A stretch of 64,000 nucleotides of DNA from Deltaproteobacteria bacterium (GTDB lineage Bacteria; UBA10199; GCA-002796325; JACPFF01). Made by a program: the position numbers and the translations under genes. The notes beneath the pieces are model-generated. The model worked only from the letters and a program-made list of their open reading frames with translations. It was not told the origin of the DNA and made no database searches. This document shows positions 1,535 through 32,706 of this stretch, one piece after another. Each line of letters opens with the position of its first letter. Within the stretch, counting starts at the first letter, position 1. The DNA lies in the NCBI GenBank assembly GCA_016210045.1, contig JACQUX010000041.1, positions 72,789 through 136,788 on the forward strand, in the 5' to 3' direction.

Positions 1535-2890
1535 TTACCATCGAGGAGGGGACGGCGTGAGCAGTCGCATCCCCGCCTGCTGGGGATCAAACGTCGGAGG
1601 AAAGAGTGTCGTCGTCGAATAGATGGCCCCGGCGAGATGCAAGGGGTCGTTCCCGGCGCATCCATTGCCCGATAGAAATTTAGCGGCCGAGAGATCCAAA
1701 CCGGCGAGCTCTGCCCCCTCCAGGCGAACGGCGGCGAGTCGCGCCCCTCTAAAACGAGCCCAGAAGAGTAGGGCGTGCCGCAGGTCGGGGGGCTGCGCCC
1801 CGGTGGAACCGCTTGTCCCGTTGGCCTTCCGTGGGGCCAAAGTCGATCCAGAAAAATCGGCGCGCACAACTGCGGAGGCCAGCGCAATCCCGTCCAACGG
1901 ATTATATCTGCGCTTGCGCCCCCAACCGCGCAGATCGAGTGCGCGGGAGGGGTCGCCGACGAGCAACCCGGACCAATTGATCCGGGCACTTGGCTCCTGC
2001 TCCAGGAGCGGGACGACCGGATGCAGCGTTCTATTTGCATGCGCGAGGGCATAGTACGACGGGCGGCTGCCAGCCACCCGCACGCGCACAGCAGGGTCTG
2101 GGATCCACTCCTCAAGCGCAATCTCGGCCCCAAAGAGTCGACGAACAACGACAGCCATTCGCAGCATCCGCGTGACCTCGGCAAGTTGCCGTTCGAGCGG
2201 GTGTGCGTCGCCCAGCAAGAGTTGCAATCCGGCAAGGGCCCGCGCCGCCGCCTGGATCTCGCCGCGCGCCGCGTAACGCACGTCCGCTGCGACATCCGTC
2301 GTCCCAAGGTCCGCTAAGAGGTCGGTGCGATGCCCATAAGCCCAAAGACCGTCGAGGGTCGGACGATTCGGATTGGGGCCCTGCTGCAACTCCCGTCGCG
2401 TCTCGACCCAGAGCTCGCGCAGCGCCTCACGCTGCGACTCGTTGACGATCGTATCGATCGCCTGCAGGGCCTGTGACGCAAACACCCAATACGGAGCGGT
2501 TGGATCCCGAAAGAACTCCCCGAGCCGCCCCATGACGGACGGCGCCGCCCGCGCCACGGCCTGCGGAAGCACCGTCCCGATCGGTCGACAGGCCGCGATC
2601 ATCTGGTCGATGGCTCGGCGTCCGGCCGTCACATGCTGCTGCACCCGAAACGCGGCCAGCTGCAGCGCCTGCGTGTCCTCTTTTCGCAGCGGCACGGCCT
2701 CGAGTGGAAAGTGGGCCACTAAGCGACCCACTGTGTCGCGCGATAATTCTTCATCGAGAGAGATCCGATCGGCCCGAATTTTCCGGGCGACTGTCTCCGT
2801 ATGCGGCGATCCGGGCCCCAAAACCACCCGTGCCACGGCCCGCGGCTCCGGCCAAATCCTTCGTTGCAACCGCATCCCCGTCTGTCCCAT
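1535..2890 (-). CDS. hypothetical protein with C-terminal pentapeptide-like repeats
   Basis: 451-aa ORF with balanced composition. The last ~90 aa contain A(D/N)LxGAxL-type pentapeptide repeats (ADFSGSTLA…LEGAELAGLDLSAAKF). The N-terminal domain is not recognised. Confidence 0.4.
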   Translation of the reverse strand: MGQTGMRLQRRIWPEPRAVARVVLGPGSPHTETVARKIRADRISLDEELSRDTVGRLVAHFPLEAVPLRKEDTQALQLAAFRVQQHVTAGRRAIDQMIAACRPIGTVLPQAVARAAPSVMGRLGEFFRDPTAPYWVFASQALQAIDTIVNESQREALRELWVETRRELQQGPNPNRPTLDGLWAYGHRTDLLADLGTTDVAADVRYAARGEIQAAARALAGLQLLLGDAHPLERQLAEVTRMLRMAVVVRRLFGAEIALEEWIPDPAVRVRVAGSRPSYYALAHANRTLHPVVPLLEQEPSARINWSGLLVGDPSRALDLRGWGRKRRYNPLDGIALASAVVRADFSGSTLAPRKANGTSGSTGAQPPDLRHALLFWARFRGARLAAVRLEGAELAGLDLSAAKFLSGNGCAGNDPLHLAGAIYSTTTLFPPTFDPQQAGMRLLTPSPPRW

Positions 2891-3063: not shown

Positions 3064-3510
3064 ATGCAACGCACGATCGCCATTGGGGCTGGGTTGGGGA
3101 GTGGGGTGTTGGTCGCGCTGATGATGCGATTGAATGCCACGCTGGGAGAGCACGTCGGCGTCTTAGAATCGTCCGTGATCGTCCATGTCGTCGGGTCGCT
3201 CTTTGCCATGGTGTTGTTGGCGCGCTTGCCACTGACGACGTTTGCGCGACGGCTGCGGGCCACGCCGCGTCGGCTGTGGATCGGGGGCGCGCTCGGGTTA
3301 GTCATCGTCGCGGGCGGCAATTGGGTGATTCCGCCGCTGGGGCTGGCGCTCGCGTCAGCGATTGTGATTACCGCCACGCTCGGCTGCTCGCTGGTGGCGG
3401 ATCATTGTGGGTGGTTCGGACTCGCACGCTTTCCGATGACCGCACGCCGTCTCGCCGGCGTCGGATGCGCGACCCTTGGCACGATCCTGATTGCGCTGCG
3501 ACTGTTATGA
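3064..3510 (+). CDS. DMT-superfamily transporter, YdcZ/DUF606-like half-size subunit
   Basis: 148 aa, 4-5 predicted TM helices, Gly/Ala/Leu rich, typical of paired YdcZ half transporters. The stop overlaps the next start (ATGA at 3507). Confidence 0.6.
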   Translation: MQRTIAIGAGLGSGVLVALMMRLNATLGEHVGVLESSVIVHVVGSLFAMVLLARLPLTTFARRLRATPRRLWIGGALGLVIVAGGNWVIPPLGLALASAIVITATLGCSLVADHCGWFGLARFPMTARRLAGVGCATLGTILIALRLL

Positions 3511-3980
3511 TCGCTCTCTATGTCATCCTGACGATCGGCAACGGAGCGCTGATCACCATCTCTCGATCGCTCAATAGCGCGCTCGGGACACGAATCGGGC
3601 ATTTGGAAGGGTCATTGGTCAATCATCTGGGCGGAATGCTCTGTGGCGCTGTACTCCTGATCGTGGGAGTGCGAACCGGGACGTGGCATGGCGGTCTGCC
3701 GTTTTACTATTACCTCGGCGGCTGCTGCGGCGTCATCTTGGTCGCGGCCAGCAATTACGCTATTCCCCGCGTCGGGAGTGTCGTGATCACGATCCTCCTG
3801 ACGATGGCCCAACTCACCGCAACTGCATGGATGGATCACAACGGCTGGCTCGGTGGCCGCGTCATCCCATTTCGCTGGACCACACTGTGCGGCATGGCAC
3901 TGCTGATCGGCGGTGCATTGTTGACGCATCCGAAACCCAGCACGCGATGGAACGTCACACCGCGGCAGCCATCCCCATAA
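3507..3980 (+). CDS. DMT-superfamily transporter, YdcZ/DUF606-like half-size subunit (second of pair)
   Basis: C-terminal 157 aa of the long ORF 2373..3980, beginning MIALYVILTIGNGAL. It is hydrophobic with TM helices and is translationally coupled to the preceding gene. The upstream 378 aa of that ORF are Arg/Ser-rich and rejected. Confidence 0.6.
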   Translation: MIALYVILTIGNGALITISRSLNSALGTRIGHLEGSLVNHLGGMLCGAVLLIVGVRTGTWHGGLPFYYYLGGCCGVILVAASNYAIPRVGSVVITILLTMAQLTATAWMDHNGWLGGRVIPFRWTTLCGMALLIGGALLTHPKPSTRWNVTPRQPSP

Positions 3981-3982
3981 GC

Positions 3983-4049
3983 GCATCCGATGGGGACAGG
4001 TACCGTCAAACCATTGAAAAACGGGCATCCGACGGTACCTGTCCCCATC
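3983..4049. terminator. Long perfect inverted repeat between the YdcZ-pair stop and the J-PilZ gene; could be a terminator, attenuator or operator.
   Basis: The arm GATGGGGACAGGTACCGTC (3989-4007) has its exact reverse complement GACGGTACCTGTCCCCATC at 4031-4049, with a 23-nt loop. It is followed by AAATGAATTTGG. Confidence 0.4.
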
Positions 4050-4098
4050 AAATGAATTTGGCCTTGGCATCGGCGGGGCGGAACATTATACGGACTAC

Positions 4099-4725
4099 AT
4101 GTCTACTTATCCCAACTACTATGACTTGCTCGGCGTGGCGCCGAATGCGCCAGTGATGGCGATCCGGAAGGCCTATCGCGCGCGGATGCTCAAACTGCGC
4201 AAACACCCCGATCTTGGGGGGTCCAATGATGGCGCGGTCTTGTTAAACGAAGCGTACGCGGTCTTGAAGGACCGGGAGCGGCGCGCCGCGTACGATCGCC
4301 TGTTTCTCGCGACGATCGCGGAACCGCTCGCGACCGCGAAACCGGCGCGCGCGGCAGGTCGGGAGCGCCGACGTGCGACGCGGGTCGGATACGCGGGCCA
4401 TGTGCATGTGCGCGTTGGACGGATCGGCGTCGTTCAACCAGGCCAGTGTCGTGACCTCTCGACTGGCGGCCTGTGTCTCAAAACTGTCGCGGCGTTGCGC
4501 CCCGGCACTGCGTTGGGGCTCGTCTTCGCCGACGATCCCGGGCTGATGTTGGAAGGCGAAGTGCGTTGGGTCCGTCCGGTGCCGCAACGCTTCGGCGCGA
4601 TACTGTACGAAGGCGGCGTGGAATTCACCGACGTCAACTTGCTCCGGTTTCAGCAATTCTGCGAACGGCTGGGGTTGCAAAACGAATTGGCTCAATCGCC
4701 GACGGAACGCTCAGCCCGACGGTAG
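4099..4725 (+). CDS. J-domain (DnaJ-like, HPD motif) fused to C-terminal PilZ c-di-GMP-binding domain
   Basis: The N-terminus YYDLLGV…AYRARMLKLRKHPDLGG…AYAVLKD…RRAAYD is a canonical J-domain. The C-terminus has the RxxxR motif (RRRATR) and DxSxGG motif (DLSTGG) of PilZ. Confidence 0.7.
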   Translation: MSTYPNYYDLLGVAPNAPVMAIRKAYRARMLKLRKHPDLGGSNDGAVLLNEAYAVLKDRERRAAYDRLFLATIAEPLATAKPARAAGRERRRATRVGYAGHVHVRVGRIGVVQPGQCRDLSTGGLCLKTVAALRPGTALGLVFADDPGLMLEGEVRWVRPVPQRFGAILYEGGVEFTDVNLLRFQQFCERLGLQNELAQSPTERSARR

Positions 4726-5511
4726 CGTGGTCCGCTGACGTGGCACGCCGCGCAACCGCACGGCGCCATCTTCCGCCGCTTCCAGTGTATGCGGCAGTAG
4801 CGCAAGATCGTTTATGTTAACGCGCTCCGCGGTCACGACTTCTGGTTCTGCCAACGCGCGCCACAACACCAAGGCCCCGAACCCGAGACTCTCAAGTGGT
4901 CGGGCACCAATATGACTGAGTTGGCCGCCTACACCGTCAAACAGCGGCGATGCGTGGAGTCCAAAAAACGTGGGCACCCACGCCAGAGCCAAGTCGAGTG
5001 GACGACCTGGAAGTGCGACTTGATGGGGAACCGTGTAGACGGCGCCCACTAAGCGATGCGACGCTGCCTGTTGTACTCTGGCCAGTGGAACGGCCTGCAC
5101 TAATCGACCCAGCAATTCGAGTTCTTCGCACTGCGCTTCCAACTGCGCCGTCAGCTGCGGCGCCCACTCCGCCACAACACGGTCGCTGGGATCAACCGCT
5201 GCGCCCGGGCCATCGGGCCGCGGAACGGAGGCCCGGCCGTCTCTGGCCACGTGCGCCACTCGATGGCGAAGAGTCGCCATTTCTCGCGGATCGATACGCG
5301 CGCCATCCAGCACGAGTTGGAATGCAACGGGGTGCCCCTTGGCACACGCTCCCGATCGGCGTGCGATCGTGGCTCGAACCACTGCGGTTTCCAGCTGGAC
5401 CACGTGCGGCACGATCTCCCGCGCCACCTGTCGCAACGCCGCACTTCGGCGCGCCCATCCAGGAAGTTCTCGCACTGCGGAAAACCGTGGCTGACTTGGC
5501 GCTGTCCTCAT
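4711..5511 (-). CDS. hypothetical protein (266 aa), last gene of minus-strand AOS/acyltransferase block
   Basis: Balanced amino-acid composition, whereas the overlapping plus-strand ORF 4950..5528 is a Pro/Arg-rich artefact. No recognisable motif. It is co-oriented 107 bp downstream of the GNAT-like gene. Confidence 0.35.
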   Translation of the reverse strand: MRTAPSQPRFSAVRELPGWARRSAALRQVAREIVPHVVQLETAVVRATIARRSGACAKGHPVAFQLVLDGARIDPREMATLRHRVAHVARDGRASVPRPDGPGAAVDPSDRVVAEWAPQLTAQLEAQCEELELLGRLVQAVPLARVQQAASHRLVGAVYTVPHQVALPGRPLDLALAWVPTFFGLHASPLFDGVGGQLSHIGARPLESLGFGALVLWRALAEPEVVTAERVNINDLALLPHTLEAAEDGAVRLRGVPRQRTTLPSG

Positions 5512-5617: not shown

Positions 5618-6724
5618 TTACAGACGTTGCTCGTACAGGCGGTAGGCCTTCTGGCGCTGGCTCCCAGTAAAGACGGCCAAGTCGTTCATCCCTTTATTCG
5701 AGCCGAGGATCCAGCTGATTTCGCCGTAGGTGTAGCCGGCCACAACGGCGCGCGCAAACGACTCGCGAAGCAGCAAACAGCCCACACCATGTTTTTGATA
5801 TTCGGGGAGAATGGCGATGGCGTACCCACGAATCCCTTGAATGCGGTTCCGGCAGCGCCACATACGATAGAACCCCTTGGGGAACAGGCGTCCGTTACAA
5901 TCGGCGAACAGGTCATTGAAGTTCGGCAAGTTGATCACGGCCCCGACCGGACGCCCGGCCACTTCGGCGATGAGGATGATGCGCGGATCGGCAAGCAGGC
6001 GCAGATCGTGCGCCATTTTTCGCGCATGTGCGGATGAAAATGGCACGAAGCCCCAGTTATTTTTTAGGCCCTCGTTGAACAGTGCACGGAGCAGTTCGGC
6101 TTCGGCATAAAGCCGATCCATTTGGATTTCTCGCACCTGAAATTGCGGAATGCGGTCCGCAACCGCCGCGCGCTCGATGAGGGTCGATGGCAGCGGATGG
6201 TCTTTATCGCCCCGATACGCATGGAGATCCATGACCGTTTGCAGTCCGGCCGCTTCCATTTGTGCTGGATAATACGGTTTTGAGTAGGCCATCATGAATG
6301 TGGGACGATGCTCAAAACCTTCCGTGAGAAAACCGGGCGCCGGATCTTCGAGTCGAAAATTGCATGGGCCGACCATTTTTTGCACGCCACGCACGCGCAG
6401 CCACTCGCTCGCTGCGGTTAGCAGGGCCTGCGCGACAGTCGGGTCGTCGATCGCTTCATAAAAACCGAACGCGCCCGATGGCGCACCGACCGCGTCCACT
6501 TGCGCCGAGATCCGCCCCACGACTTCGCGCCCGCGCCGCGCCAAAAACAGTGCGGCATCGCCTTTGCGAAAATAGGGATTTTTTTTACGATTGAGTCGCT
6601 GCGCAAGTTCCAGCCGCAAGGGCGCAACCCATGCCGGATCGGTGCGGTACAATCGCCACGGCAACGCAAGGAAGCGGCGTTGCTGCCACCACGTGCGCAC
6701 TTGTTCGACAGAGATTGGCAACAT
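5618..6724 (-). CDS. large GNAT-like N-acyltransferase (368 aa)
   Basis: The C-terminal half has acyl-CoA N-acyltransferase-like features (…RIILIAEVAGRPVGAVINLPNF…GIRGYAIAILPEYQKHGVGCLLL…). At 368 aa it is about twice the size of a minimal GNAT, as seen in N-acyl-amino-acid/ceramide-synthase-like or FemAB-like families. It lies 53 bp downstream of the alpha-oxoamine synthase. Confidence 0.55.
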   Translation of the reverse strand: MLPISVEQVRTWWQQRRFLALPWRLYRTDPAWVAPLRLELAQRLNRKKNPYFRKGDAALFLARRGREVVGRISAQVDAVGAPSGAFGFYEAIDDPTVAQALLTAASEWLRVRGVQKMVGPCNFRLEDPAPGFLTEGFEHRPTFMMAYSKPYYPAQMEAAGLQTVMDLHAYRGDKDHPLPSTLIERAAVADRIPQFQVREIQMDRLYAEAELLRALFNEGLKNNWGFVPFSSAHARKMAHDLRLLADPRIILIAEVAGRPVGAVINLPNFNDLFADCNGRLFPKGFYRMWRCRNRIQGIRGYAIAILPEYQKHGVGCLLLRESFARAVVAGYTYGEISWILGSNKGMNDLAVFTGSQRQKAYRLYEQRL

Positions 6725-6777
6725 AGTCAGATTACCGTAGTTTTCTCAGCAGGTTCAGAAGTGGTGATACGTCCCCA

Positions 6778-8040
6778 TCACAGTAAATCGTCGAGGTTGT
6801 AGTACGGCGCGGCAGGCAGCGTGGTGGGGTCGCCGGGAAGATCTTCGCGTCGCAAACGATACGTGGGCGCCAATTTGCGGAACGCTTCGATGATCGTGGT
6901 TAAGTCGGCGCGCTGGTGTGTGGCCATGTATGACGTTCGGATAAGCGCGTGACCATACGGGACTGCCGGATAGGCCACGGGCGTGGCGAACACGCCTTCC
7001 TCGCGCAATGCCATCGCGAGTTTCATCGCACGACCTTCGGGACCGACCCAAATCGACAAGATCGGCGCGGCCGACGGCATTAAGTAAACGCCCAATTCTT
7101 CGAACCCATGCCGCACAAAATGGACATTCTCCCACAATCGCGTGCGGTGCTCCGGTTCACTTTCGATGACGTCGAGCGCGGCCAACGCCGCCGCAGCGTT
7201 CGCCGGCGCCAGCCCAGCGCTGAACCAAAGCGAGCGGGCCTTGTGGCGGATATATTCCATCACGGCGGCCTCGCCGGCAACGAAGCCCCCGATCGAGGCC
7301 AGCGACTTCGAGAACGTCCCCATCAGCACGTCGATCGCGTCCATGCACTGAAAATGTTCGCCGATCCCACGGCCGGTGGCACCGAAAACGCCGAATCCAT
7401 GCGCATCGTCGACATACAAACACAACTGCGGCGTGTCGTGCTTGATCCGCACCAGCTCCGGCAATGGGGCCAACGTGCCCGTCATCGAAAAAACGCCGTC
7501 GGTGACGATCGCCGCGCCGCCGGTCACGGTCGTGGCCGCCACTTGCGCGCGACACGCCGCCGCATCGGCGTGGGCGTAACGCACCACTTGCCCCCGACTT
7601 TGACGACAGCCGTCGATGATCGACGCATGGTTTTCGTCGTCGCTGAAAATGACGTCGCCTTCGTCGAACAGACACCCAATGGCGCCTAAATTGGACATGA
7701 AGCCCGTCGCAAACACCAAGGCCTCTTCTTTGCCGACAAATTTCGCCAGCCGCGCTTGCAATTCTTCGTGCAACTTCAGATTGCCGTTTACTAAACGCGA
7801 GCCGCTGCAGCCGGTTCCAAAACGCCGCGTGGCCTGAATCGCGGCCTCGCGGACTTTTGGATGATGCGTCAGACCGAGGTAGTTATTCGAGACCGCCATC
7901 ACGAGCGTGCGGCCGTCACATTGCACGCGCGGACCTTCCGATTCTTCGATCGGTTGGAAAAATGGATACGCGCCCACGCCCTTCACAAACTGGGTCTGGA
8001 GGCAAAATTCGCGACATTTGTCGAAGAGATCAATTGGCAT
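6778..8040 (-). CDS. PLP-dependent alpha-oxoamine synthase family (BioF/Kbl/Spt-like)
   Basis: The translation is a class-II aminotransferase with the AOS hallmarks NNYLGL, SDxxNHASIIDG, DDAHGFG and the GTFSKSLASIGGF lysine motif. The start is placed at MPIDLF. The listed ORF extends 18 codons further upstream, to 8094. Confidence 0.8.
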   Translation of the reverse strand: MPIDLFDKCREFCLQTQFVKGVGAYPFFQPIEESEGPRVQCDGRTLVMAVSNNYLGLTHHPKVREAAIQATRRFGTGCSGSRLVNGNLKLHEELQARLAKFVGKEEALVFATGFMSNLGAIGCLFDEGDVIFSDDENHASIIDGCRQSRGQVVRYAHADAAACRAQVAATTVTGGAAIVTDGVFSMTGTLAPLPELVRIKHDTPQLCLYVDDAHGFGVFGATGRGIGEHFQCMDAIDVLMGTFSKSLASIGGFVAGEAAVMEYIRHKARSLWFSAGLAPANAAAALAALDVIESEPEHRTRLWENVHFVRHGFEELGVYLMPSAAPILSIWVGPEGRAMKLAMALREEGVFATPVAYPAVPYGHALIRTSYMATHQRADLTTIIEAFRKLAPTYRLRREDLPGDPTTLPAAPYYNLDDLL

Positions 8041-8162
8041 CGATTGGCGGCGGACGCTATACCGACGGGCGCTGGCAGTCAAATGGAGATGCAAGGTCGG
8101 AGAATGATTCGCTCACCAATATTCGCTTTGCACGAACGTGCAGCGCGATTAGGAATCTCCGC

Positions 8163-9377
8163 ATGCGTGCGCTGGAATATCGCCTCTCCATTCCCCGCTA
8201 TCTGATGAGCCGAGCATGTGCGCGGATTTGGCCGCATCGCTTTGTGCGCTTGGTGTCATCGCTACGATTGCGGGACGTCGCGGAACCGACGCTCCCTGGT
8301 CCGGAATGGGTGCGGATACGCGTAGAACGCTGTGGCATTTGCGGCAGCGATTTGAACGCGCTGCGGGGCGAGGAATCGTATTCGATGGAGCCGTACGCAA
8401 GCTTTCCCGCGGTAATGGGCCACGAAATCATCGGTCGCGTGGTCGAGTGTGGATCAAGCGTGCGCGACGTCGCGGAGCAGACGCGCGTCGCCGTCGAAAA
8501 CGTGTTGCCGTGCGCTGCGCGCGGGATCACGCCGCCGTGTCCGGCCTGTGCGGCGGGCGATTATGCGGTGTGCGAAAATTTCACGCAGGGAAATTTACCG
8601 CCGGGTGTGATTACCGGATTCACGCGCGGGCTCGGTGGCGGATGGGGAGAAACGGTCGTTGCCCATCGCTCGCAACTCTTTCCCGTCCCAGAATCGATCC
8701 CGCTGGATCAGGCCGTGTTGATCGATTCAATCGCGTCGGCGCTGCAACCTGTAGCGGATCATTTTCCCGCCGCACACGAAACCGTTTTAGTAATCGGCGC
8801 CGGGATCATTGGGCTGCATGTTGTGCAATGTCTGCGGTTCGCCGGATTTACCGGATCGCTGCTTGTTGTGGCGCGGCATGATTTCCAGGCCGCGTGGGCG
8901 GAGCGGCTCGGCGCGACGCATGTCTTGCGGCGCGATCTCATCCCAGCAATTGCGAACCTCACTGGGGCGCGACTCTATCGGCCAACCCTCGGACTGCCCG
9001 TATTGGATGGCGGCGTAGACCGCGTCTTCGATTGCGTCGGCGCGTCGGGGACAATCGACATGGCGCTCCGCGTGCTCCGCAAACGGGGAAGCTTGATCGT
9101 CGTCGGCACCGCAAGTCAGTTGAACCGCGTCGATGCCTCGCCGCTGTGGTTTAAAGAAATTCGGATGACCGGGAGCGCGATGTTTGCGCATAGCACGGTG
9201 CGCGGACTCCGCCAACGCACGTATCAGCACGTCATCGACGGACTCGCGCAAGGCACGTTGCGCGGCAATGGCCTCGTCACGCACCAATTCCCGCTCCGCG
9301 CATATGCGCACGCGCTGACGGTGGCGCTCGATAAAAGGCGTTTTCAGAGTCTGAAGGTCGCTTTTACGCCGGATTGA
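8163..9377 (+). CDS. zinc-dependent medium-chain dehydrogenase/reductase (alcohol/threonine-dehydrogenase-like)
   Basis: Catalytic Zn motif CGICGSD…GHEIIG. Structural Zn cysteines CPACAAGDYAVCEN. Rossmann motif VIGAGIIG. The start is placed at MRALEYRL. The listed ORF's upstream extension from 7857 is rejected. Confidence 0.75.
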   Translation: MRALEYRLSIPRYLMSRACARIWPHRFVRLVSSLRLRDVAEPTLPGPEWVRIRVERCGICGSDLNALRGEESYSMEPYASFPAVMGHEIIGRVVECGSSVRDVAEQTRVAVENVLPCAARGITPPCPACAAGDYAVCENFTQGNLPPGVITGFTRGLGGGWGETVVAHRSQLFPVPESIPLDQAVLIDSIASALQPVADHFPAAHETVLVIGAGIIGLHVVQCLRFAGFTGSLLVVARHDFQAAWAERLGATHVLRRDLIPAIANLTGARLYRPTLGLPVLDGGVDRVFDCVGASGTIDMALRVLRKRGSLIVVGTASQLNRVDASPLWFKEIRMTGSAMFAHSTVRGLRQRTYQHVIDGLAQGTLRGNGLVTHQFPLRAYAHALTVALDKRRFQSLKVAFTPD

Positions 9378-21482: not shown

Positions 21483-24008
<2,526 letters not shown>

Positions 24009-24017
24009 TCATCTGCT

Positions 24018-24069
24018 TCCCCTCTCCCCGATGGGGAGAGGGATCCGCCCCAGGCGGAGGGTGAGGGCC
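24018..24069. repeat. partial copy of the palindromic intergenic repeat (single hairpin + GGGTGAGGG core)
   Basis: CCCCTCTCCCC-GAT-GGGGAGAGGG followed by …GGAGGGTGAGGGCC, in the gyrB-recF spacer. Confidence 0.45.
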
Positions 24070-24109
24070 TAACATGCACCGCCCCACGAGTAAAGGATTC
24101 CCCGCGTTT

Positions 24110-25180
24110 TCATCCGAATACCGCGCCTCCGCAAACACGCATCATGCGCGCATCCGCGGGATCATCCACATGCGTGGCGGTCACCAGAATCTGCGTTTCC
24201 AATTCCCGCAACGCCGCGAACAGCGCGGCTAATCGATCGGCATCTAACTCACTCCCGACGTCATCCAACAACAGGATCGGCGCAGTCCCCCGGCATTCCC
24301 GCGAAAGGTGGACTTCGGCTAATTTCAAGCTCAACACCACACTCCGATGTTGCCCCTGCGAACCGAAATGCTGCAGATCCCGAGCGGCCAACAACACGCG
24401 CACGTCGTCTCGATGCGGCCCGACCACCGTAATGCCACGCGCCCGCTCTTCCTCCGCCCGCCGTCGTAACTGATCGAAAAAATCATCCGCCTGATCCACT
24501 TGTGGTTCGTACTGCAGCGCAATTTCTCCATCGGCCGGCGCAAAGGCGCGATGCACTGACGGCAACCACGCGCGCAATCGATCCACCCATTCCCGCCTCG
24601 CCGCCACGACCCGGATCCCCAATTCAACCAATTGCACATCCCACGGCGCCAGCTGTGCCTGCAGCGACGCGGCGGCCATTCCCACGGCCTGCTTCAACAC
24701 GCGATTACGATGCAGCAACACTCGCTGCCACTGCCGGCGCAACGCGCGAAACGCCGGATCCATCCCTTCGATCAATGTGTCCAAATAGTCTCGCCGCGCG
24801 GCCGGCGGTCCCTTGAACAACCACGTCTCCTCCGGCGCAAACAGGATCACATGCGGCCACGCCAGGTCCGTCCCACGGACTCGTTTTTCATTGCGCAACA
24901 GGGTGCGCGCCGACAATTGCAGCTCCACGGCCAGCCAATCCCGCAGTCCGTCGCGATCGCTCTCCGCCCCGACCTTTGCTTGTGCCGCGCTATGGCGGAT
25001 CAAATCCGCCCGCTCGCCGGTCCGAAACGAATGCCCGCGCCCCACCAAATAGACCGCTTCAAGCAAATTGGTCTTTCCTTGCGCGTTGGCGCCGACAAAA
25101 TACGTCACGCCGGCGTTGAGCACGAATTCGACGCACGTATAATTGCGAAAATCACGGAGCGTGAGGCGGGTGAAAATCAC
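24110..25180 (-). CDS. recF: DNA replication and repair protein RecF
   Basis: Walker A GANAQGKTNLLEA and the SMC-like signature; overlaps the dnaN stop. Confidence 0.9.
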   Translation of the reverse strand: MIFTRLTLRDFRNYTCVEFVLNAGVTYFVGANAQGKTNLLEAVYLVGRGHSFRTGERADLIRHSAAQAKVGAESDRDGLRDWLAVELQLSARTLLRNEKRVRGTDLAWPHVILFAPEETWLFKGPPAARRDYLDTLIEGMDPAFRALRRQWQRVLLHRNRVLKQAVGMAAASLQAQLAPWDVQLVELGIRVVAARREWVDRLRAWLPSVHRAFAPADGEIALQYEPQVDQADDFFDQLRRRAEEERARGITVVGPHRDDVRVLLAARDLQHFGSQGQHRSVVLSLKLAEVHLSRECRGTAPILLLDDVGSELDADRLAALFAALRELETQILVTATHVDDPADARMMRVCGGAVFG

Positions 25181-26301
25181 GACAGACGCATTGGCATGAT
25201 GACCGACAAGAAGTCGCGATCGAATTCAGACCGAATCACACACGGGGCCAACTCCCCCTTGAGCTCCAGCACGAGTTGTTCGTCGGTCACGACATTCAGC
25301 ACATCTTGAAAATAGCGCGCATTGAACCCGACTTCGAACGTCTCCCCCTTATACCCAACCTGGAGTTCCTCATACGCCTCGCCTAAATCGGGATTCTGCG
25401 CCGAGATATCCAGATGGCCCGGTGAAAAGCGGAACTTCACACCGCGAATCCGTTCGCTCGTCACTAGCTGCACCCGCCGTAACGCCGCGCCGAATTCGTC
25501 GCGCGGCACCGTGACCAACCATTTATGATCTTTTGGAATCACTTGGCTATACGGCGGAAACTGCCCGTCGATCAGGCGGATCAACAGCGAGACATTATCG
25601 CGCTCGACCGCGATATATTTTTCATCCAACCGCAAGATAAAATCTCCGCTCGCGCCTTCGAGCAAGCGCCGCCATTCCAAAATGCCTTTGCGCGGCACGA
25701 TCACGCCGGCCGGCAACTTCCACTTTCCCGCCACCAACCGATCGGCATACGATAAACGATGTCCATCCGTGGCCGCCACACGCAACCGCGCCGCCCCTTT
25801 CGCACCGGCATCCGCCACTTGCTCCATGAAGAGCCCATTTAAGTTGTACCGGGTCTCGTCGGTCGACATCGCATAGACCGTTTTTTCGATCATCTCCAAC
25901 ATGGCCGACGCGGCCATGGAGACCTTCTCCGCGCTCGGCGTCTGCGGCAACGCCGGATATTCGTCGGCTGCGAGCCCGACGATCTTAAACTGTGATTTTC
26001 CCGCCTTCACTTCCACGCGATGATTCTCGCCGACTTTCAGATGCACGCGATCATCGGGCAGCGACTTCACGATATCGTACAACGCGCGGGCTCCTACCGT
26101 AACTTTTCCCGCGACTTTGGTCTCCACCGGTTGCGCGACCGTGACCCCGACTTCCAGATCCGTCGCCGTCAGCGTCAGCAATTTCCCTTCAGCCGCTAAA
26201 CAGCAATTGGCCAAAATCGGCATCGTGGCCTTGCGGTCCACGACCGTTTGGGTCCAGCTTAAGCTTTTGAGTAGATCACTTTTAGTGCTGTGGAATTCCA
26301 T
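25177..26301 (-). CDS. dnaN: DNA polymerase III beta sliding clamp
   Basis: Three-domain beta-clamp sequence (…LTLTATDLEV…, …RLIDGQFPPYSQVIP…). 374 aa. Confidence 0.9.
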   Translation of the reverse strand: MEFHSTKSDLLKSLSWTQTVVDRKATMPILANCCLAAEGKLLTLTATDLEVGVTVAQPVETKVAGKVTVGARALYDIVKSLPDDRVHLKVGENHRVEVKAGKSQFKIVGLAADEYPALPQTPSAEKVSMAASAMLEMIEKTVYAMSTDETRYNLNGLFMEQVADAGAKGAARLRVAATDGHRLSYADRLVAGKWKLPAGVIVPRKGILEWRRLLEGASGDFILRLDEKYIAVERDNVSLLIRLIDGQFPPYSQVIPKDHKWLVTVPRDEFGAALRRVQLVTSERIRGVKFRFSPGHLDISAQNPDLGEAYEELQVGYKGETFEVGFNARYFQDVLNVVTDEQLVLELKGELAPCVIRSEFDRDFLSVIMPMRLS

Positions 26302-26574
26302 GAGTCCCTCACCGCGAAATAGCCTTCTAATAAGAATTTATATATATAAAAATAGTAGTAGTAGTAGCACCTGTGGAAATGTGGGTAACGCTGTTAACTC
26401 CCGGACGGCGCTACGTAATCGCATGTGGACCCACTGGGAACAACCGGCGACACTCATCCACAGCCGAACATCGCGCGGGACTCTAACGTTGCCCGCCAAG
26501 CGTTGTCAACACGACAATCCCGGACTGATCCACAGTTTGCTGGGGATAAAAAACAGCGCAGTACTTCATCGCGT
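26302..26574. promoter_or_regulatory. candidate oriC (dnaN-dnaA intergenic)
   Basis: The lowest-GC stretch in the window is TAATAAGAATTTATATATATAAAAA at 26329-26352, a candidate DNA-unwinding element, followed by a (TAG)5 repeat. DnaA-box-like 9-mers, each 1-2 mismatches from TTATCCACA, lie in either orientation:
- TGTGGAAAT at 26373-26381.
- CATGTGGAC at 26422-26430.
- TCATCCACA at 26454-26462.
- TGATCCACA at 26527-26535.
- TGGGGATAA at 26541-26549. Confidence 0.5.
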
Positions 26575-27951
26575 TTAATGGACCAGACTTTTTTCGAGAA
26601 ATTCGACTTCATCGCGCAACCGCCCGCTCTCTTGAATTGCGGCGTCGATCTTGCGGCAAGCGTGCATGACCGTCGTGTGATCTTTGCCGCCGAATTTCCG
26701 CCCGATCTCGGGGAAGGAACTTTTGGGAATGTGTTTTTTGCAGAGATACATCGCGATTTGCCGCGGCACCGCGAGATGTTTCATGCGGCGCGGCGATTTC
26801 ATATCGGAGAGTTTGATTTGGTAATAATCGGCGACCATTTTTTGCACCGCTTCAATGGAGCATGGCTGATGGTGATCCTTCACGATGTCTTTCAACACCT
26901 CTTTGGCGAATTCGACCGTGATCGGCACGTTGTGGAGCGCGGCGTACGCGGAGAGCCGGATCAGCGAACCCTCCAGTTCCCGCACGTTGGAGCGGAATTG
27001 TTGCGAGAGATAAATGAAGACGTCGTTTTCTAAGCGGATCCGACTCGTCTCCGCCTTCTTTTGCAAGATTGCGATCCGAGTTTCCAGATCCGGCGGTTGA
27101 ATATCCGCAATCAGCCCCCATTCGAACCGGGACCGCAGTCGGTCATCCAGACCGTCGACATCTTTCGGAAACCGATCGCTTGTGACGACAATTTGTTTCT
27201 GCGCGTAATACAGCACGTTGAACGTGTGGAAAAATTCGTCCTGCGTTCGTTCTTTGCCGGCAATGAATTGGATGTCGTCCATTAACAACACATCGCAGCC
27301 GTCCCGATATTTTTTTCGCAGCTCGGCTGTTTTGTCGAACCGGATGGCGTTGATCACTTCGTTCATGAAGCGTTCCGAGCTGACGTACAGAATACGCAGG
27401 TGGGGAAACCGATCTTGCAGTTGAATGCCGATCGCATTCAGTAAGTGCGTCTTCCCGAGTCCCACGCCGCCATAAATGAATAGCGGATTGTAATGACCGC
27501 CCGGGAGATCGGCGACCGCTTTACACGCGGCCGTCGCAAACTGATTATTCGTGCCGATCACGAAACGGTCAAAGTCGTATTTGGGATTCAGCGGATCGCC
27601 GAGCGGCGCCGCGACGACCGACGTGACCAATGGGCGGCGGGCCGCGTCATTCGCCAGTTGCGGGACCGGTTGCTCCGCCGGAACGTCTTCGTCGTCCGAT
27701 TCCGCTGCGCCATCCGCGCGAATTTCGATTTGCAGTTGCCACGGGGCCCCGCCGATCCGGCCGGCCTCTTCCACAATGGTGGTCCCGTAGTACTCCCGCA
27801 GCCAGTCACGTGTGAAGACGTTCGGCACCGAGAGCTTCAGCACGCCATCTTCCGAGGCAGCACACCGCACTCCCTGAAACCAATAGTTGTAGTGAAAGTC
27901 ACTGATTTTCGATCGTATTTTGTGGAGTACTGACTCCCACAATTCCGGCAT
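26575..27951 (-). CDS. dnaA: chromosomal replication initiator protein DnaA
   Basis: The AAA+ domain has Walker A GGVGLGKTHL and Walker B; the C-terminal DNA-binding domain includes …KSPRRMKHLAVPRQIAMYLCKKH…. The start is placed at MPELWESVL, which gives a conventional N-terminus. Confidence 0.95.
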   Translation of the reverse strand: MPELWESVLHKIRSKISDFHYNYWFQGVRCAASEDGVLKLSVPNVFTRDWLREYYGTTIVEEAGRIGGAPWQLQIEIRADGAAESDDEDVPAEQPVPQLANDAARRPLVTSVVAAPLGDPLNPKYDFDRFVIGTNNQFATAACKAVADLPGGHYNPLFIYGGVGLGKTHLLNAIGIQLQDRFPHLRILYVSSERFMNEVINAIRFDKTAELRKKYRDGCDVLLMDDIQFIAGKERTQDEFFHTFNVLYYAQKQIVVTSDRFPKDVDGLDDRLRSRFEWGLIADIQPPDLETRIAILQKKAETSRIRLENDVFIYLSQQFRSNVRELEGSLIRLSAYAALHNVPITVEFAKEVLKDIVKDHHQPCSIEAVQKMVADYYQIKLSDMKSPRRMKHLAVPRQIAMYLCKKHIPKSSFPEIGRKFGGKDHTTVMHACRKIDAAIQESGRLRDEVEFLEKSLVH

Positions 27952-27971
27952 GGTCAACCCCGTCCACATAC

Positions 27972-27993
27972 CTATCCACAGGCTGTGGATGAC
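27972..27993. promoter_or_regulatory. inverted pair of DnaA boxes immediately upstream of dnaA start (autoregulatory site candidate)
   Basis: Read directly from the sequence: CTATCCACA, then GGC, then TGTGGATGA (the reverse complement of TCATCCACA). Confidence 0.5.
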
Positions 27994-28328
27994 TCCAAAA
28001 GCCAACGTATCGCTACCAAAGAGCGCCTAGTTCTTCTTTTTACAATCAGTGGAAACGCTGCCGAAGCGAAACGACTGAACGCGTTACAAACTTTACATCG
28101 GACATTGCTTGCGGTGAGTTTGCGCATGGCAAGAGCAACTTTCCTCTCGCCCTGTGCAAATCGTCGCCGCACCGCCGCTGTTAGGAACGCGATCTGGTCG
28201 CCGCGCATTTCGAGTGCTGCCACTGTTTGTCAAAGAAGAGTTGTGCACATACTCTTCGCCGGAATTTTTTGGCAATATTTTTTTTCCCGACGGCGCAACT
28301 CCTTGAGTCTCTTGTCAAAAAAAATCGC

Positions 28329-28363
28329 CTTGACAGGCACCGCCAAACCCGCATAACTCGCGC
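28329..28363 (+). promoter_or_regulatory. sigma70-type promoter candidate for rpmH-rnpA-yidD-yidC
   Basis: TTGACA at 28329-28334, a 17-nt spacer, then ATAACT. It is preceded by A/T tracts (GGAATTTTTTGGCAATATTTTTTTT, CAAAAAAAATCG). Confidence 0.45.
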
Positions 28364-28398
28364 CTCACGCAACGTCTCAATCACGCGAGGAAATTTCG

Positions 28399-28545
28399 AT
28401 GAAACGGACATATCAACCGAGTAAACGGCGCCGCAAGAAGACACACGGGTTTCGCGCCCGTATGAAAACGGTCGGCGGTCGTCGAGTGTTAGCAGCCCGG
28501 CGCCGCAAGGGGCGCAAGCGTTTGGCCGTTACAGCGGCGCGCTGA
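28399..28545 (+). CDS. rpmH: 50S ribosomal protein L34
   Basis: [44 protein letters not shown]. 48 aa. Not in the ORF track (shorter than 60 aa); read by hand from the sequence. Confidence 0.9.
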
Positions 28546-28552
28546 TTACTTC

Positions 28553-28882
28553 ATGGCCCGCTTGCCGCGTCGTGCGCGGCTCCATTCTCAACACCTCTTT
28601 CAACGCGTCCTGAAGAATGGTCGGAAGCAACGAGGGAGCGCCCTCGAGCTGCGCTGGCTGACCGGAGATGTCGCGCCGCAGCTGGGCGTGATCATCAACC
28701 GACATGTCGGGACGGCCGTGGAGCGCAATCGACTGAAGCGAATCGTGCGGGAATGGTTTCGTCATATGCGGGAACGATTGCCGCATGGCGCGTGGATCAT
28801 TCGACTACTCCCTCCGGCGGCCACACGATCCACGACGCTCTTGCACCGCGATTTGACCCTGCAATTGAGGCGGCTCATATGA
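28553..28882 (+). CDS. rnpA: ribonuclease P protein component
   Basis: 109 aa and basic, with the RNR motif region (…ERNRLKRIVRE…), in the canonical position after rpmH. Confidence 0.85.
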   Translation: MARLPRRARLHSQHLFQRVLKNGRKQRGSALELRWLTGDVAPQLGVIINRHVGTAVERNRLKRIVREWFRHMRERLPHGAWIIRLLPPAATRSTTLLHRDLTLQLRRLI

Positions 28883-29145
28883 ACCAGTTTTTTTTATGGG
28901 TGGTGCGGGGCTATCAGCTCGCCATCAGTCCGCTATGTCGGCTGCTCGGCGCGCAATGCCGTTTTTATCCGAGTTGCAGCCAGTATGCCTGCGACGCGCT
29001 CCGACAGCTGCCGTGGGCCACGGCACTGCGCTTCATCGGGTGGCGACTGTTGCGCTGCCATCCCTGGTGCGAAGGAGGCATTGATCTTGTCCCCGCGCGC
29101 CGAATATGCAAAAGCGTCTCTACCGAGGTGAGCAATGAAATCTGA
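28879..29145 (+). CDS. yidD: membrane protein insertion efficiency factor YidD
   Basis: MNQFFLWVVRGYQLAISPLCR…CRFYPSCSQYA is the YidD signature. The start overlaps the rnpA stop and the end overlaps the yidC start. Confidence 0.85.
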   Translation: MNQFFLWVVRGYQLAISPLCRLLGAQCRFYPSCSQYACDALRQLPWATALRFIGWRLLRCHPWCEGGIDLVPARRICKSVSTEVSNEI

Positions 29146-30790
29146 ATCGCGACTCTTATTGGCCACGGCCCTCAGTATGGCGGTCTTTTCCGGATGGTTC
29201 TTGCTCTTTCCTCCGCAATCGCCTCCTGCCACGCCCGCTGCAACCGACGCGAGCGCGCCCGCCAATCCAGCCGTCGATGCTGCGGGCAATGCCGTTGTCC
29301 CGACAACACCAGCAGCGGTCTCGACCATTAACGATCCGCAGGCCACGCTGTCCGCGGAGACGGTCACGATGCAGACTGGCGTTGCGGAAATCACGCTCAC
29401 CAACGATGGCGCTGTCCCCTCGCGTTGGGCGTTGCAGCAATATCAGCAAGGGAAACAAGATGAAGCGACGTCGGTAGACCTCGTCACCGCCCCCACGGCG
29501 CCGCCTCTTGGTGTGGAATTAGTCGGTCTCGACGGCCTGCTTCCGCCGCAAGCGCGCTATGCCGTGGAACGCCTCGATGCCCAGAACGTCCGCTTCCGCT
29601 GGCGTTCCGAACAGCTCGAGGTCGTCAAGACGTACCACTTCCAACCCGGTGTCTACTCATTGGGACTGGATGTGGAACTGATCAATCACGGTACGGCGCC
29701 GCTGCAAGGCCGACTCGGAGTCCGCTGGATGGCCGCGAACTCTGATCAACAAAAACCGAGCGGATTACTCGCGTTCATCAAACCGCCGACCGATCATTGG
29801 CAGCCGCTTTATTGGAAGGCCGGCTCCGTCACCCGCCTCACCGACCCGAAAGACTTAGCCGCCGGCGTCAGCGACGACGGCGCCATCGGGTGGGCCGGCG
29901 TCGAAAGCCGCTATTTCCTCGCCGCGATTGTCCCGCATGCCACCACGACCCAAACCCATTTCCAGGGCACCGCTGCTGCCCCGCTGCTCGGCGTCTCGAT
30001 CGCGACCACCCCATTTGCGATTCCCGCCGGCACGAGCACGCGGCAGAATTTCACCATTTATGTCGGCCCGAAGGACCTGAAGGCACTGAAGGTCGTCGGC
30101 AATGGCCTCGACGCCGCAATCGACTACGGATGGTTCGGCTTTGCCGCCGTCCCGATCCTCTATCTCCTGAAGTTTTTCTACTCGATCATCCATAACTATG
30201 GCGTGGCCATCATTCTCCTTACGCTCTTCATCAAGGCGCTGCTCCATCCGATCACTAAGGCCTCATTGGCCTCGATGCGGCGGATGCAACTCTTGCAACC
30301 GCAACTGAAAGCCATTCAAGAGAAGTACAAAGGAGACCGTGAACGTTTGAACGCGGAAATGATGCAACTCTTCCGCAGCAACAAGGTCAACCCGATGGCC
30401 GGCTGTCTCCCCATGCTTGCCCAAATCCCGATCTACATCGCCCTTTATAAAGTGCTCTGGAACGCCGTAGAACTCTATCGCGCGCCGTTCGTCTGGTTTT
30501 ATCGCGACCTCTCCGCCCCGGACCCCTATTTTATTTCCCCCGCGCTGCTCGCCGTTGGATTCTATCTCCAGCAAAAATTGACCCCAAACCCCAGCGGCGA
30601 CAAGGCCCAGCAGAAAATGATGCAAATGATGACCTTCCTCTTCGCCGGCTTCATGCTGTTCCTCCCCAGCGGCCTAGTCATCTACATCCTCGTCAACACC
30701 GGCTTCAGCATCCTCCAACAATGGCTAATGAATCGCGGCCTAGGCTTCCGCGACCTACTCCGCGGGAATCTGCGGCCGAAGGCGGCATGA
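29135..30790 (+). CDS. yidC: membrane protein insertase YidC
   Basis: N-terminal TM segment, a large periplasmic domain, then the conserved C-terminal 5-TM core (…HNYGVAIILLTLFIKALLHPIT…). 551 aa. Confidence 0.9.
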   Translation: MKSESRLLLATALSMAVFSGWFLLFPPQSPPATPAATDASAPANPAVDAAGNAVVPTTPAAVSTINDPQATLSAETVTMQTGVAEITLTNDGAVPSRWALQQYQQGKQDEATSVDLVTAPTAPPLGVELVGLDGLLPPQARYAVERLDAQNVRFRWRSEQLEVVKTYHFQPGVYSLGLDVELINHGTAPLQGRLGVRWMAANSDQQKPSGLLAFIKPPTDHWQPLYWKAGSVTRLTDPKDLAAGVSDDGAIGWAGVESRYFLAAIVPHATTTQTHFQGTAAAPLLGVSIATTPFAIPAGTSTRQNFTIYVGPKDLKALKVVGNGLDAAIDYGWFGFAAVPILYLLKFFYSIIHNYGVAIILLTLFIKALLHPITKASLASMRRMQLLQPQLKAIQEKYKGDRERLNAEMMQLFRSNKVNPMAGCLPMLAQIPIYIALYKVLWNAVELYRAPFVWFYRDLSAPDPYFISPALLAVGFYLQQKLTPNPSGDKAQQKMMQMMTFLFAGFMLFLPSGLVIYILVNTGFSILQQWLMNRGLGFRDLLRGNLRPKAA

Positions 30791-30991
30791 CGTTTTGGGA
30801 CACGATTGAGTCCAACGGCAATTCAGTGACTTCCTATCGTCTGTATCTGGGGAATTGTTACTCCGTCTGCTGAATTGATTTCCAAGGGGGGAACCGCCGG
30901 GGCTTGCCGTGTTGGAGGTCCTCGTTTGATTTATTCCCGGCGCCGCCGTCGAGCGGAGTGCATCTGCCATGTGGCGGGATGGACGTGAGTT

Positions 30992-31456
30992 CTAACCGGA
31001 TTGGATGACCTCGCATTCCAATTGGTGGAGATCGGCTGTTGCTGTGGGTAATTCACAGGAAATTGTGATCCCTGCACAATCTTCGCGTTCCGAAGGACTG
31101 CCATCTTCTCCACACGACCCCGGAGCGATATCCATTGCGCTCCAGGTCCATTGTTGCCCCTTCCTTGTTCCGGGGTTGGTCACTTTATAGACGGACTTCG
31201 GGGTTGATCGCAATGCATGGAAGATCTTTGGATCACGCAGGAAAATCATCTCCACCTCCGTATTCATCGGGGCTGATCGGCGGAGTTCGTCTTCGCGTTT
31301 TTGCAGACGGGTAACACACTCGGCATGTTCCGGCTTGATCGTCACTTCTTGTGAGGACCCCGGTTTGTACCAACCGCCATCGCCGTGAAAAAGGGTTGTC
31401 AATTCAGGAGAGGTAAATGGACGACCTGCCAACGCATAGGGCACATTTTTTATCAA
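30992..31456 (-). CDS. hypothetical protein in lower-GC pocket
   Basis: 154-aa ORF in an ~850-bp stretch whose GC is visibly below the surrounding genes. No recognisable motif. It is uncertain that this is a real coding region. Confidence 0.3.
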   Translation of the reverse strand: MIKNVPYALAGRPFTSPELTTLFHGDGGWYKPGSSQEVTIKPEHAECVTRLQKREDELRRSAPMNTEVEMIFLRDPKIFHALRSTPKSVYKVTNPGTRKGQQWTWSAMDIAPGSCGEDGSPSEREDCAGITISCELPTATADLHQLECEVIQSG

Positions 31457-31647
31457 TGCGCTCTTTCCGCGTTTTCCATTCGGCTTCGGTCATTCATTAC
31501 GTCCTTTGCGTGACAATATTTTGAGGTGCGCAACCGTATAGTTTTACGGGAGAAAGCTCAATCGGTGATTCCAAGATTCAACTTGTGAGTTAAGTCCCTA
31601 CTGATTGGTGTGAGGGATGGCCCGCAAAAAACCTCAGCCAGCAGAAT

Positions 31648-32706
31648 TTACTGCAACAACGTGGTTTGCACTGCGGTGGCGGGGGTGAAGATTTTTTGTT
31701 GGTAGGGTTTGGTAGTTGAGGAAGAAGTCGTCGTGTCGGTGCCGCGGGCGAAATAGAGCATCGCGGCGGTTGTGGCGTTGTTAAACCAGCGTTCGGAAAA
31801 GTTTTGGTAGGCCACACTTAAAACCAGGCCTTCGCCCGATTGGAACGGAACGCCGGCCGGATCGGCGTATTGCGGGAGTTCGGTCACTTGGTGTTGCGCA
31901 TTAATCACGGCCGCGGCTTTCCAGAACGGGGCTGCTTCGCTTTCTTTGGTCAACGCCACTTCCACGCCGAAATCTTGTAACAGCCCCTGCGCCGCCACCA
32001 AATGGCCGGCCGTCGGCACCGCGACGCGCGTTTGCTTCGTGACGTAGCCGCCCGGCTCTACGGCCAACGGCTGATGGCCACATGGATCGGTCTCGATCAG
32101 TAGTGGTTGTACATCTTGCATGACTTGTTTGGTGTCCATCGGTTCGCCGCGGACCGTGAAGCGGAAATAGACTTCAGAATAATCTTCATCGGTGGGATTC
32201 CGTAACCATACTGTGGTTTCGAGGCGATCAGTGGGGACGATCGCGTAGCCGTAGCCCGCCGGCAACGTGATTTTCTGATGTGCGGATGTTGTGGCCGCAA
32301 TCGGGAGCCCGGTGCGTTCGCCGGAGCAAAGGGGATTGGACTCGCCGTGATTCGCGACAATCGCGAGGTGCAGCAGAGATGCCGGCAACGCGTTGCCGTT
32401 CCGATCTTCGAGCTCCGGTTCAAATGCGGTCATCCACAACGGCTCTTCGATTGCAAACGCAATGCTGCCTGGTTGATCGGCGAGGCGTTCCGGAGCGGAT
32501 TGCGCGGGAAGCTTGAACGGACCGACGCGATACGTGTAACTGCGAAGGCCCGCACTGACTGGTATTGGCGACGTCGGGGTTGTTTCAATGGCGGGCGGGA
32601 GGCTGGCGGTCACTGGCTGCAGAGTTGGTGCATTCGCTCCTTGCGAACAGGCCACGAGCGAGATACCTACCCAGCCGATCAAGGAACTATGGAGAATTCG
32701 CTTCAC
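31648..32706 (-). CDS. hypothetical lipoprotein (352 aa)
   Basis: Signal peptide plus lipobox (ISLVAC), followed by a Pro/Thr-rich linker. Confidence 0.55.
   Translation of the reverse strand: MKRILHSSLIGWVGISLVACSQGANAPTLQPVTASLPPAIETTPTSPIPVSAGLRSYTYRVGPFKLPAQSAPERLADQPGSIAFAIEEPLWMTAFEPELEDRNGNALPASLLHLAIVANHGESNPLCSGERTGLPIAATTSAHQKITLPAGYGYAIVPTDRLETTVWLRNPTDEDYSEVYFRFTVRGEPMDTKQVMQDVQPLLIETDPCGHQPLAVEPGGYVTKQTRVAVPTAGHLVAAQGLLQDFGVEVALTKESEAAPFWKAAAVINAQHQVTELPQYADPAGVPFQSGEGLVLSVAYQNFSERWFNNATTAAMLYFARGTDTTTSSSTTKPYQQKIFTPATAVQTTLLQ

Follow-up and report, generated by a model that had tools for sequence, protein, structure and literature searches.

A 208-residue J-domain-PilZ fusion protein as a candidate c-di-GMP-dependent adaptor for DnaK/Hsp70

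Does a single bacterial gene encode both a DnaJ-type J-domain and a PilZ c-di-GMP receptor domain and, if so, could its product place the Hsp70 chaperone under the control of a second messenger? This question was raised by an open reading frame in a stretch of 64,000 nucleotides from a Deltaproteobacteria bacterium, hereafter called the window, for which the original prediction proposed a fusion of the two domains with c-di-GMP sensing coupled directly to the recruitment of DnaK. The features discussed below are collected in Table 1.

Table 1. Features of the J-domain-PilZ gene and of the DNA upstream from it (window coordinates).
Feature	Coordinates	Strand	Basis
Perfect 19-bp inverted repeat, 23-nt loop	3989..4049 (arms 3989-4007 / 4031-4049)		Repeat search, unique in window
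Promoter-like block TTGGCA-N17-TATACG, ending 6 nt before ATG	4064..4092	+	Conserved in three loci
J-domain-PilZ CDS, stop codon included	4099..4725	+	ORF list; 208 aa, uninterrupted
J-domain, aa 6-66	4114..4296	+	Pfam, PDB matches, AF2 model, Foldseek
HPD motif H36 P37 D38, followed by LGG ('HPDLGG' subtype signature)	4204..4212	+	Sequence
Inter-domain linker, aa 74-90	4318..4368	+	Variable/gapped columns in A1
PilZ domain, beta-barrel and C-terminal alpha-helix	4363..4671	+	Pfam, AF2, Foldseek
RxxxR half of predicted c-di-GMP site, R91-R-A-T-R95, at linker end	4369..4383	+	Sequence
[D/N]xSxxG half of predicted c-di-GMP site, D119-L-S121-T-G-G124	4453..4470	+	Sequence
Clade-specific invariant block W157-x-R159-x-x-P162-x-R164-F165-G166-x4-E171-x-G173-x-x-F176	4567..4626	+	A1 columns

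The coding sequence begins at the earliest start codon past an in-frame stop. Its product is already in NCBI, as an identical protein entered as 'MAG: DnaJ domain-containing protein [Deltaproteobacteria bacterium]' (P0001), and was found on two contigs that had been assembled separately (SRR12113390 and SRR12113401). The two-domain layout is shared with 22 more orthologues. Conservation was read from an alignment of 23 orthologues with 33-88% identity (A1), and from a wider J-domain-PilZ set made of the 150 best cluster representatives found with the A1 profile (A2). Could the fusion be an artefact, due to a chance match of motifs or to a frameshift in sequencing or assembly that merged two genes? 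Both Pfam matches on this one continuous reading frame exceed their gathering scores, and the same layout recurs in more than 100 homologous clusters. The presence of the identical protein in two independent assemblies, together with orthologues of the same layout, excludes a frameshift or a spurious fusion, and we give this explanation practically no chance of being right. The possibility raised at the outset, that the two halves were separate ORFs, is thereby answered in the negative, and the presence of both domains on one polypeptide is confirmed.

The N-terminal half matched Pfam DnaJ (PF00226) from residue 6 to residue 66, with 47.7 bits against a gathering score of 27.8 (E 1.7e-12), and the match covered the profile over its full length (positions 1-63 of 63). 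J-domains of known structure in the PDB aligned with this half end to end (E 1e-13 to 1e-9). An AlphaFold2 model (AF2) was built on A1 (mean pLDDT 82.8, pTM 0.74), in which four helices are found at residues 7-11, 19-33, 44-57 and 59-73, with HPD between the second and the third. In a Foldseek search of the PDB with the model, this half matched the J-domains of CbpA (3ucs), DnaJ (4j7z) and DNAJB. Helix II is basic and reads IRKAYRARMLKLRK; it has 2 residues more than its counterpart in DnaJ and DNAJA1, and helix III is 2 residues shorter at its start. HPD is invariant in 23 of the 23 orthologues, and among the 150 representatives of A2 the H and the P are invariant and the D is at least 90% conserved. 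Every defining feature of a J-domain protein that could be tested is thus present, namely the profile, HPD and the four-helix fold with a basic helix II. The protein is not a class A or class B Hsp40, since the full-length NCBIfam models for DnaJ and CbpA matched its first ~70 residues only, with 30-41 bits against cut-offs of 338-619. The features of class A/B DnaJ or of CbpA, which are the G/F region, the zinc-finger domain and the C-terminal substrate-binding domains, are lacking.

The C-terminal half matched Pfam PilZ (PF07238) over residues 89-180, with 38.7 bits against a gathering score of 22.5 (E 1.3e-9). In the AF2 model, strands lie between residues 96 and 178 and are followed by a helix at 181-191, with a pLDDT of ~90-96, and Foldseek matches in the PDB were PilZ structures with bound c-di-GMP, namely the PilZ domain of BcsA (4hg6/4p00), PA0012 (8u0i), MotI (5vx6), YcgR (5y6g) and MrkH. 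No solved structure with both the J-domain and the PilZ half was found in the PDB with Foldseek. A beta-barrel followed by a C-terminal alpha-helix is what distinguishes a canonical PilZ domain from xPilZ (Galperin and Chou, bioRxiv 10.1101/814665); by profile, bipartite motif and barrel plus helix topology, all of its testable features, the domain is a canonical PilZ. Other memberships were looked for in the 208-aa protein. The Pfam scan gave no match to PF07317 or PF12945, which leaves the protein outside the YcgR-like group, and no Hsp70 NBD or SBD, the protein being also too short for the CsdK1/CsdK2 type discussed below. The match to TIGR02266, the Myxococcus PilZ-like paralogous family, was partial (aa 118-165) and reached 26.9 bits against a cut-off of 68.7.

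The HPD, RxxxR and DxSxGG motifs on which the original prediction was based could all be read in the protein (H36-P37-D38, R91-x3-R95 and D119-x-S121-x-x-G124). Both arginines are invariant in A1 and at least 90% conserved in A2. D119, S121 and G124 are likewise invariant in A1, with the S and the G at least 90% conserved in A2, and the two half-motifs are separated by 23 residues. PilZ domains inside fusion proteins keep their c-di-GMP binding motifs (Galperin and Chou, bioRxiv 10.1101/814665). Since HPD, R91, R95, D119, S121 and G124 are together invariant in A1, and conserved at 90% or more in A2, the alignments indicate that the J-domain and PilZ activities are under joint selection. Conservation is nevertheless not uniform along the protein. 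The linker is variable in sequence, and the model is of low confidence over about residues 74-95, a segment that includes RxxxR (AF2 pLDDT 53-60 over residues 71-90). The last beta-hairpin of the barrel carries the invariant block of Table 1, which reads 'VRWxRxxPQRFGxxxYEGGVEF' and is missing from the consensus of the wider set A2. We consider this WxRxxPQRFG hairpin as a candidate surface for binding a partner or for docking the J-domain.

How common is such a fusion? The original prediction presented it as an architecture outside those usually listed for PilZ, and this was overstated. The A1 profile was searched against 1.84 billion cluster representatives, and yielded 3,560 proteins at E<=1e-10, 30 of them at E<=1e-30. 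The 150 best of these 3,560 matches each scored more than 107 bits; Pfam DnaJ was found in 150 of the 150, and Pfam PilZ, at E<=1e-3, in 87. The combination of HPD with RxxxR-(15-40 residues)-[DN]xSxxG was present in ~136 of 146 representatives, and in 114 of the 120 matches of a first search. A pattern scan of GTDB genomes, whose matches mostly correspond to a generic J-domain pattern, contained at least 4 loci of the J-(Zn ribbon)-PilZ type, with Syntrophobacter, a Gammaproteobacteria MAG and Vicinamibacterales among the sources; the named sources of the relatives also include Deltaproteobacteria, Gammaproteobacteria, Woeseiaceae and Burkholderiaceae MAGs. The PilZ half used as sole query gave 6 matches, all of them J-fused or fragments, in a word-index search of limited sensitivity, and the lack of solo PilZ relatives there may be taken as weak evidence. 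In the literature, Kuzmich et al. (2021, PMC8316039) reported a DnaK or DnaJ domain in four of the 24 M. xanthus PilZ proteins, and PilZ-DnaK proteins have been studied (PMC10313047). The architecture is therefore not rare: metagenomes commonly contain it, domain databases already include it, and published work mentions it. Phrase searches of the literature ('DnaJ-PilZ' and similar) found no characterised J-PilZ protein.

Within this family, most members differ from the window protein by their middle part. The 'HPDLGG' subtype, with HPD at position 36, accounts for 119 of the 120 first-search matches and 130 of the 146 representatives, and a zinc ribbon, CxxC...CxxC, separates the J-domain from PilZ in 96 of the 120 and in 111 of the 146, respectively. 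The zinc-ribbon 'HPDLGG' proteins, of ~225-260 aa, were seen in Gammaproteobacteria, Woeseiaceae, Burkholderiaceae, Syntrophobacter and Vicinamibacterales MAGs. They share with the window protein the position of HPD at 36, the 2 additional residues of helix II, the HPDLGG sequence, the order of the domains and the bipartite PilZ motif. They differ by the CxxC...CxxC ribbon and a linker of ~100 residues, whereas the clade of the window protein, a minority of 180-215 aa proteins, has a short linker of ~20 residues without ribbon, and its own invariant WxRxxPQRFGxxxYEGGVEF block. The window protein thus joins, in a zinc-ribbon-less subclade, an abundant and catalogued family that is functionally uncharacterised.

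Two further forms were observed among the matches. A third size class of 305-375 aa (up to 400 aa among P0130-P0216) gave three matched stretches, corresponding to a J-domain, a middle region with RxxxR but without DxSxxG, and a canonical PilZ. The middle region is possibly an xPilZ/PilZN-like barrel, which would make these proteins a J-domain fused to a YcgR-like tandem. One 679-aa representative (P0121) has six tandem J-domains, with HPD at 45, 152, 259, 382, 505 and 628, and no PilZ motif, which points either to an unusual poly-J protein or to an artefact of repeats or of assembly.

What could a bare J-domain joined to a PilZ barrel do? J-domains bind ATP-loaded Hsp70 through their HPD motif and basic helix II, and thereby set off hydrolysis. 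In the two-domain PilZ receptors YcgR, PP4397 and VCA0042, the inter-domain linker that carries RxxxR wraps c-di-GMP and re-orients the domains. By analogy with these systems, we propose, with about even confidence for and against, that the window protein is a minimal class C (type III) J-domain protein whose PilZ domain acts as a c-di-GMP-dependent targeting adaptor for DnaK/Hsp70. The PilZ domain would bind intercalated c-di-GMP, which would order the linker and shift the J-domain with respect to the barrel, in the manner of YcgR, PP4397 and VCA0042. This change might expose the J-domain, or form a partner surface on the barrel, for which the W-x-R-x-x-PQRFG hairpin is the candidate. The J-domain would dock on ATP-bound DnaK and cause ATP hydrolysis, so that only at high c-di-GMP would DnaK be delivered to a specific client or site. 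Gating of this kind is consistent with the anatomy of the protein, in which the RxxxR arginines lie where the flexible linker between J and PilZ ends, and with the conservation described above.

Each half of this proposal has its known counterparts. Like the class C proteins DjlA, HscB and Shewanella AtcJ (PMC6715715), the window protein combines a J-domain with one small unrelated specificity domain, and lacks a G/F region, a zinc-finger domain and the C-terminal domain of DnaJ. In DjlA, HscB and AtcJ, unlike here, the specificity module is not a receptor for a nucleotide second messenger. Its PilZ half resembles that of YcgR, PP4397, VCA0042/PlzD, MotI and MrkH, in which a canonical PilZ barrel has RxxxR on the linker to an N-terminal domain. 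That N-terminal domain is a PilZN/xPilZ barrel in the two-domain receptors and a J-domain in the window protein, and the outputs of the former are control of the flagellar motor or of transcription, not Hsp70.

The closest comparison is with M. xanthus, where PilZ also shares a polypeptide with part of the Hsp70 machinery, both in the DnaJ/DnaK-PilZ proteins and in CsdK1/CsdK2. The likeness to the M. xanthus DnaJ-PilZ protein is by description only, as its locus is unnamed in the supplement of Kuzmich et al. CsdK1 and CsdK2, which are PilZ-DnaK proteins, let the solo PilZ protein CdbS accumulate in heat stress (Seidel et al. 2023, PMC10313047), and it was proposed that, through the M. xanthus PilZ-Hsp70 proteins, c-di-GMP and heat stress are connected with the action of a chaperone on one particular client. 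They provide a precedent for a PilZ domain coupled to the Hsp70 system and count in favour of a gated adaptor; CsdK2, like the window protein, keeps the full bipartite c-di-GMP motif. The organisation is different, as PilZ is N-terminal to a full Hsp70 (NBD, linker, SBD) in CsdK1/CsdK2 and C-terminal to a bare J-domain in the window protein, which must consequently act through a separate DnaK. Genetics in M. xanthus points the other way. All 24 PilZ genes were deleted, and phenotypes in motility, EPS or development were found only for plpA, pixA, pixB and pkn1 (PMC8316039). The absence of such phenotypes in the DnaJ/DnaK-PilZ deletions (PMC8316039) counts against the gated adaptor.

Intact PilZ motifs alone are not proof of c-di-GMP binding: for PlpA of M. 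xanthus, whose motifs are intact, no binding of c-di-GMP was reported (PMC8316039). The barrel might then be a ligand-independent module for interaction or client binding, through which DnaK is recruited constitutively, regardless of c-di-GMP. Some PilZ proteins, such as the Xanthomonas PilZ and M. xanthus PlpA, do work without c-di-GMP, and the clade-specific invariant WxRxxPQRFG surface suggests a dedicated partner. Conservation of all five residues of the c-di-GMP-contacting motif, invariant in the 23 orthologues and kept at 90% or more in the 150 representatives, would be hard to explain if the ligand were irrelevant, and we hold a constitutive adaptor to be unlikely. Control could also run in the reverse direction, with DnaK acting on the protein's own PilZ domain or PilZ-c-di-GMP complexes, and thereby on the stability or availability of the receptor, or with DnaK being titrated at high c-di-GMP. 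The stabilisation of a PilZ protein, CdbS, by the M. xanthus PilZ-DnaK chaperones (PMC10313047) is a point in favour, as is the presence of two solo PilZ genes in the same window. J-domain proteins, however, generally deliver clients to Hsp70 and are not clients themselves, and solo PilZ genes are not co-localised with the J-PilZ gene in the other four loci, so that reversed control appears quite improbable.

We thus keep the c-di-GMP-gated adaptor as the preferred reading. Were it right, c-di-GMP would directly control Hsp70 targeting, an output so far documented only indirectly, via PilZ-DnaK and CdbS in M. xanthus. It could be extended to the 'HPDLGG' J-PilZ superfamily as a whole, zinc-ribbon-less clade included, whose members would be widespread adaptors with a J-domain switched on or off by c-di-GMP at the linker; this wider reading is a tentative one, and we would not bet on it. 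If true, many Proteobacteria and Acidobacteriota of the environment would have a second messenger directly linked to their chaperone network. The 208-aa protein, with a J-domain, a 20-residue linker and PilZ, is close to the simplest form and would be a convenient model in vitro. As a sequence finding, the J-PilZ gene is ordinary, and nothing in the window points to a client.

The DNA upstream from the gene was analysed for signals of expression. The perfect 19-bp stem-loop mentioned in the original prediction is there, between the stop of ydcZ (3980) and the promoter-like block. With 92% complementarity the repeat reaches 24 nt, and its RNA fold has an MFE of -56.7 kcal/mol (z -5.5). No T-tract follows it, and the terminator scan made no call at the hairpin. 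A match of the hairpin to Rfam mir-92 was below threshold (21.7 bits vs a gathering score of 47) and was discarded as a chance hairpin match. In the locus of an 88% relative (P0002, L090) the 3' arm is kept; the repeat is missing from that of a 61% relative (P0004, L003), whose intergenic gap measures only 44 nt. This, with the unrelated genes that flank the distant orthologues, does not support a relevance of the stem-loop to the J-PilZ gene. The repeat probably terminates or insulates the ydcZ pair that precedes it, rather than belonging to the J-PilZ gene.

The promoter-like block lies in a conserved intergenic stretch, ATGA(A/T)TTTGGC(C)TTGGCA...CATTATACGG, found at 4050-4098 in the window, 20-68 in L090 and 7953-8000 in L003, with an identical spacing between the block and the ATG in all three. 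The scan for sigma-70 consensus promoters called no site at TTGGCA-N17-TATACG, and no Shine-Dalgarno sequence was found upstream from the ATG. These sequence features suggest, tentatively and with low confidence, a separate promoter for the gene and, perhaps, an mRNA without a leader. The J-PilZ gene appears to be transcribed on its own.

Could the function instead be tied to the neighbouring genes, for example to the assembly of their products? Upstream are two genes for YdcZ-type DMT half-transporters (3064-3980, +). Downstream, a convergent gene of 266 aa (4711-5511, -), 62% identical in L090, overlaps the J-PilZ stop by 15 nt; it matched no Pfam or NCBIfam family significantly, nor did a 451-aa gene at 1535-2890 (-), for which only a sub-threshold pentapeptide-repeat match was obtained. 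The genes further on, at 5618-9377, encode a GNAT-like protein of 368 aa (-), a member of the BioF/Kbl family (-) and a Zn-dependent alcohol dehydrogenase (+). The top NCBIfam match of the BioF/Kbl gene was serine palmitoyltransferase, with 432 bits, under the cut-off of 640, and the cluster could be a sphingolipid-like or aminolipid pathway. The AOS/acyltransferase block of the original prediction is thus indeed nearby, and its suggested relevance found no support. Among the four orthologue loci compared, P0004 (L003), P0010, P0012 and P0022, the YdcZ pair and the lipid-type genes are kept only around the closest relative, P0004, 61% identical.

The flanking genes common to the window and P0004 are what speaks for a function linked to the YdcZ exporter pair or to the AOS/GNAT-like/Zn-ADH lipid cluster. 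Around P0010, P0012 and P0022 the neighbours are entirely different, and even in L003 the J-PilZ gene is set apart from the lipid genes by an insertion of two unrelated genes; moreover, a conserved block of its own precedes the gene, and the strong hairpin separates it from ydcZ. No operon partner is conserved across the four loci, from which we conclude that the neighbours reflect lineage synteny and not functional linkage; a tie to them is disfavoured and very improbable. That none of the neighbours is conserved, and so none indicates a client, also counts against the gated adaptor. Unannotated ORFs of ~450 aa near three of the loci were considered as a possible partner and rejected, as the one of the window is unrelated to the other two, which are 60% identical to each other.

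The window as a whole corresponds to the region of the chromosomal replication origin, with gyrB, recF, dnaN and dnaA at 21483-28005 (-) and, beyond dnaA, yidC, mnmE and mnmG (region 21483-36193); the nuo operon, parA and ATP synthase genes are also present. GC content around the J-PilZ gene is unremarkable and does not suggest a foreign island. Among the scanned ORFs of the window, none for a c-di-GMP cyclase or phosphodiesterase was recognised, which counts against the gated adaptor.

The two further single-domain PilZ genes announced by the original prediction were found, both on the minus strand. The second in order, at 49512-49886, encodes 124 aa (Pfam E 1.7e-9) and keeps RxxxR, as RVWVR. 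Its second motif, DLGFGG, is degenerate (DxGxxG), and c-di-GMP binding by this protein is doubtful from its sequence since the Ser is replaced by Gly. The first, at 43968-44324, encodes 118 aa with intact RRHER and NLSCGG motifs (Pfam E 1.3e-15). It precedes nuoA (43537-43911, -) by 56 nt, with both genes on one strand, and stands first in the nuo (NADH dehydrogenase) operon, a position that hints at some connection of c-di-GMP with complex I.
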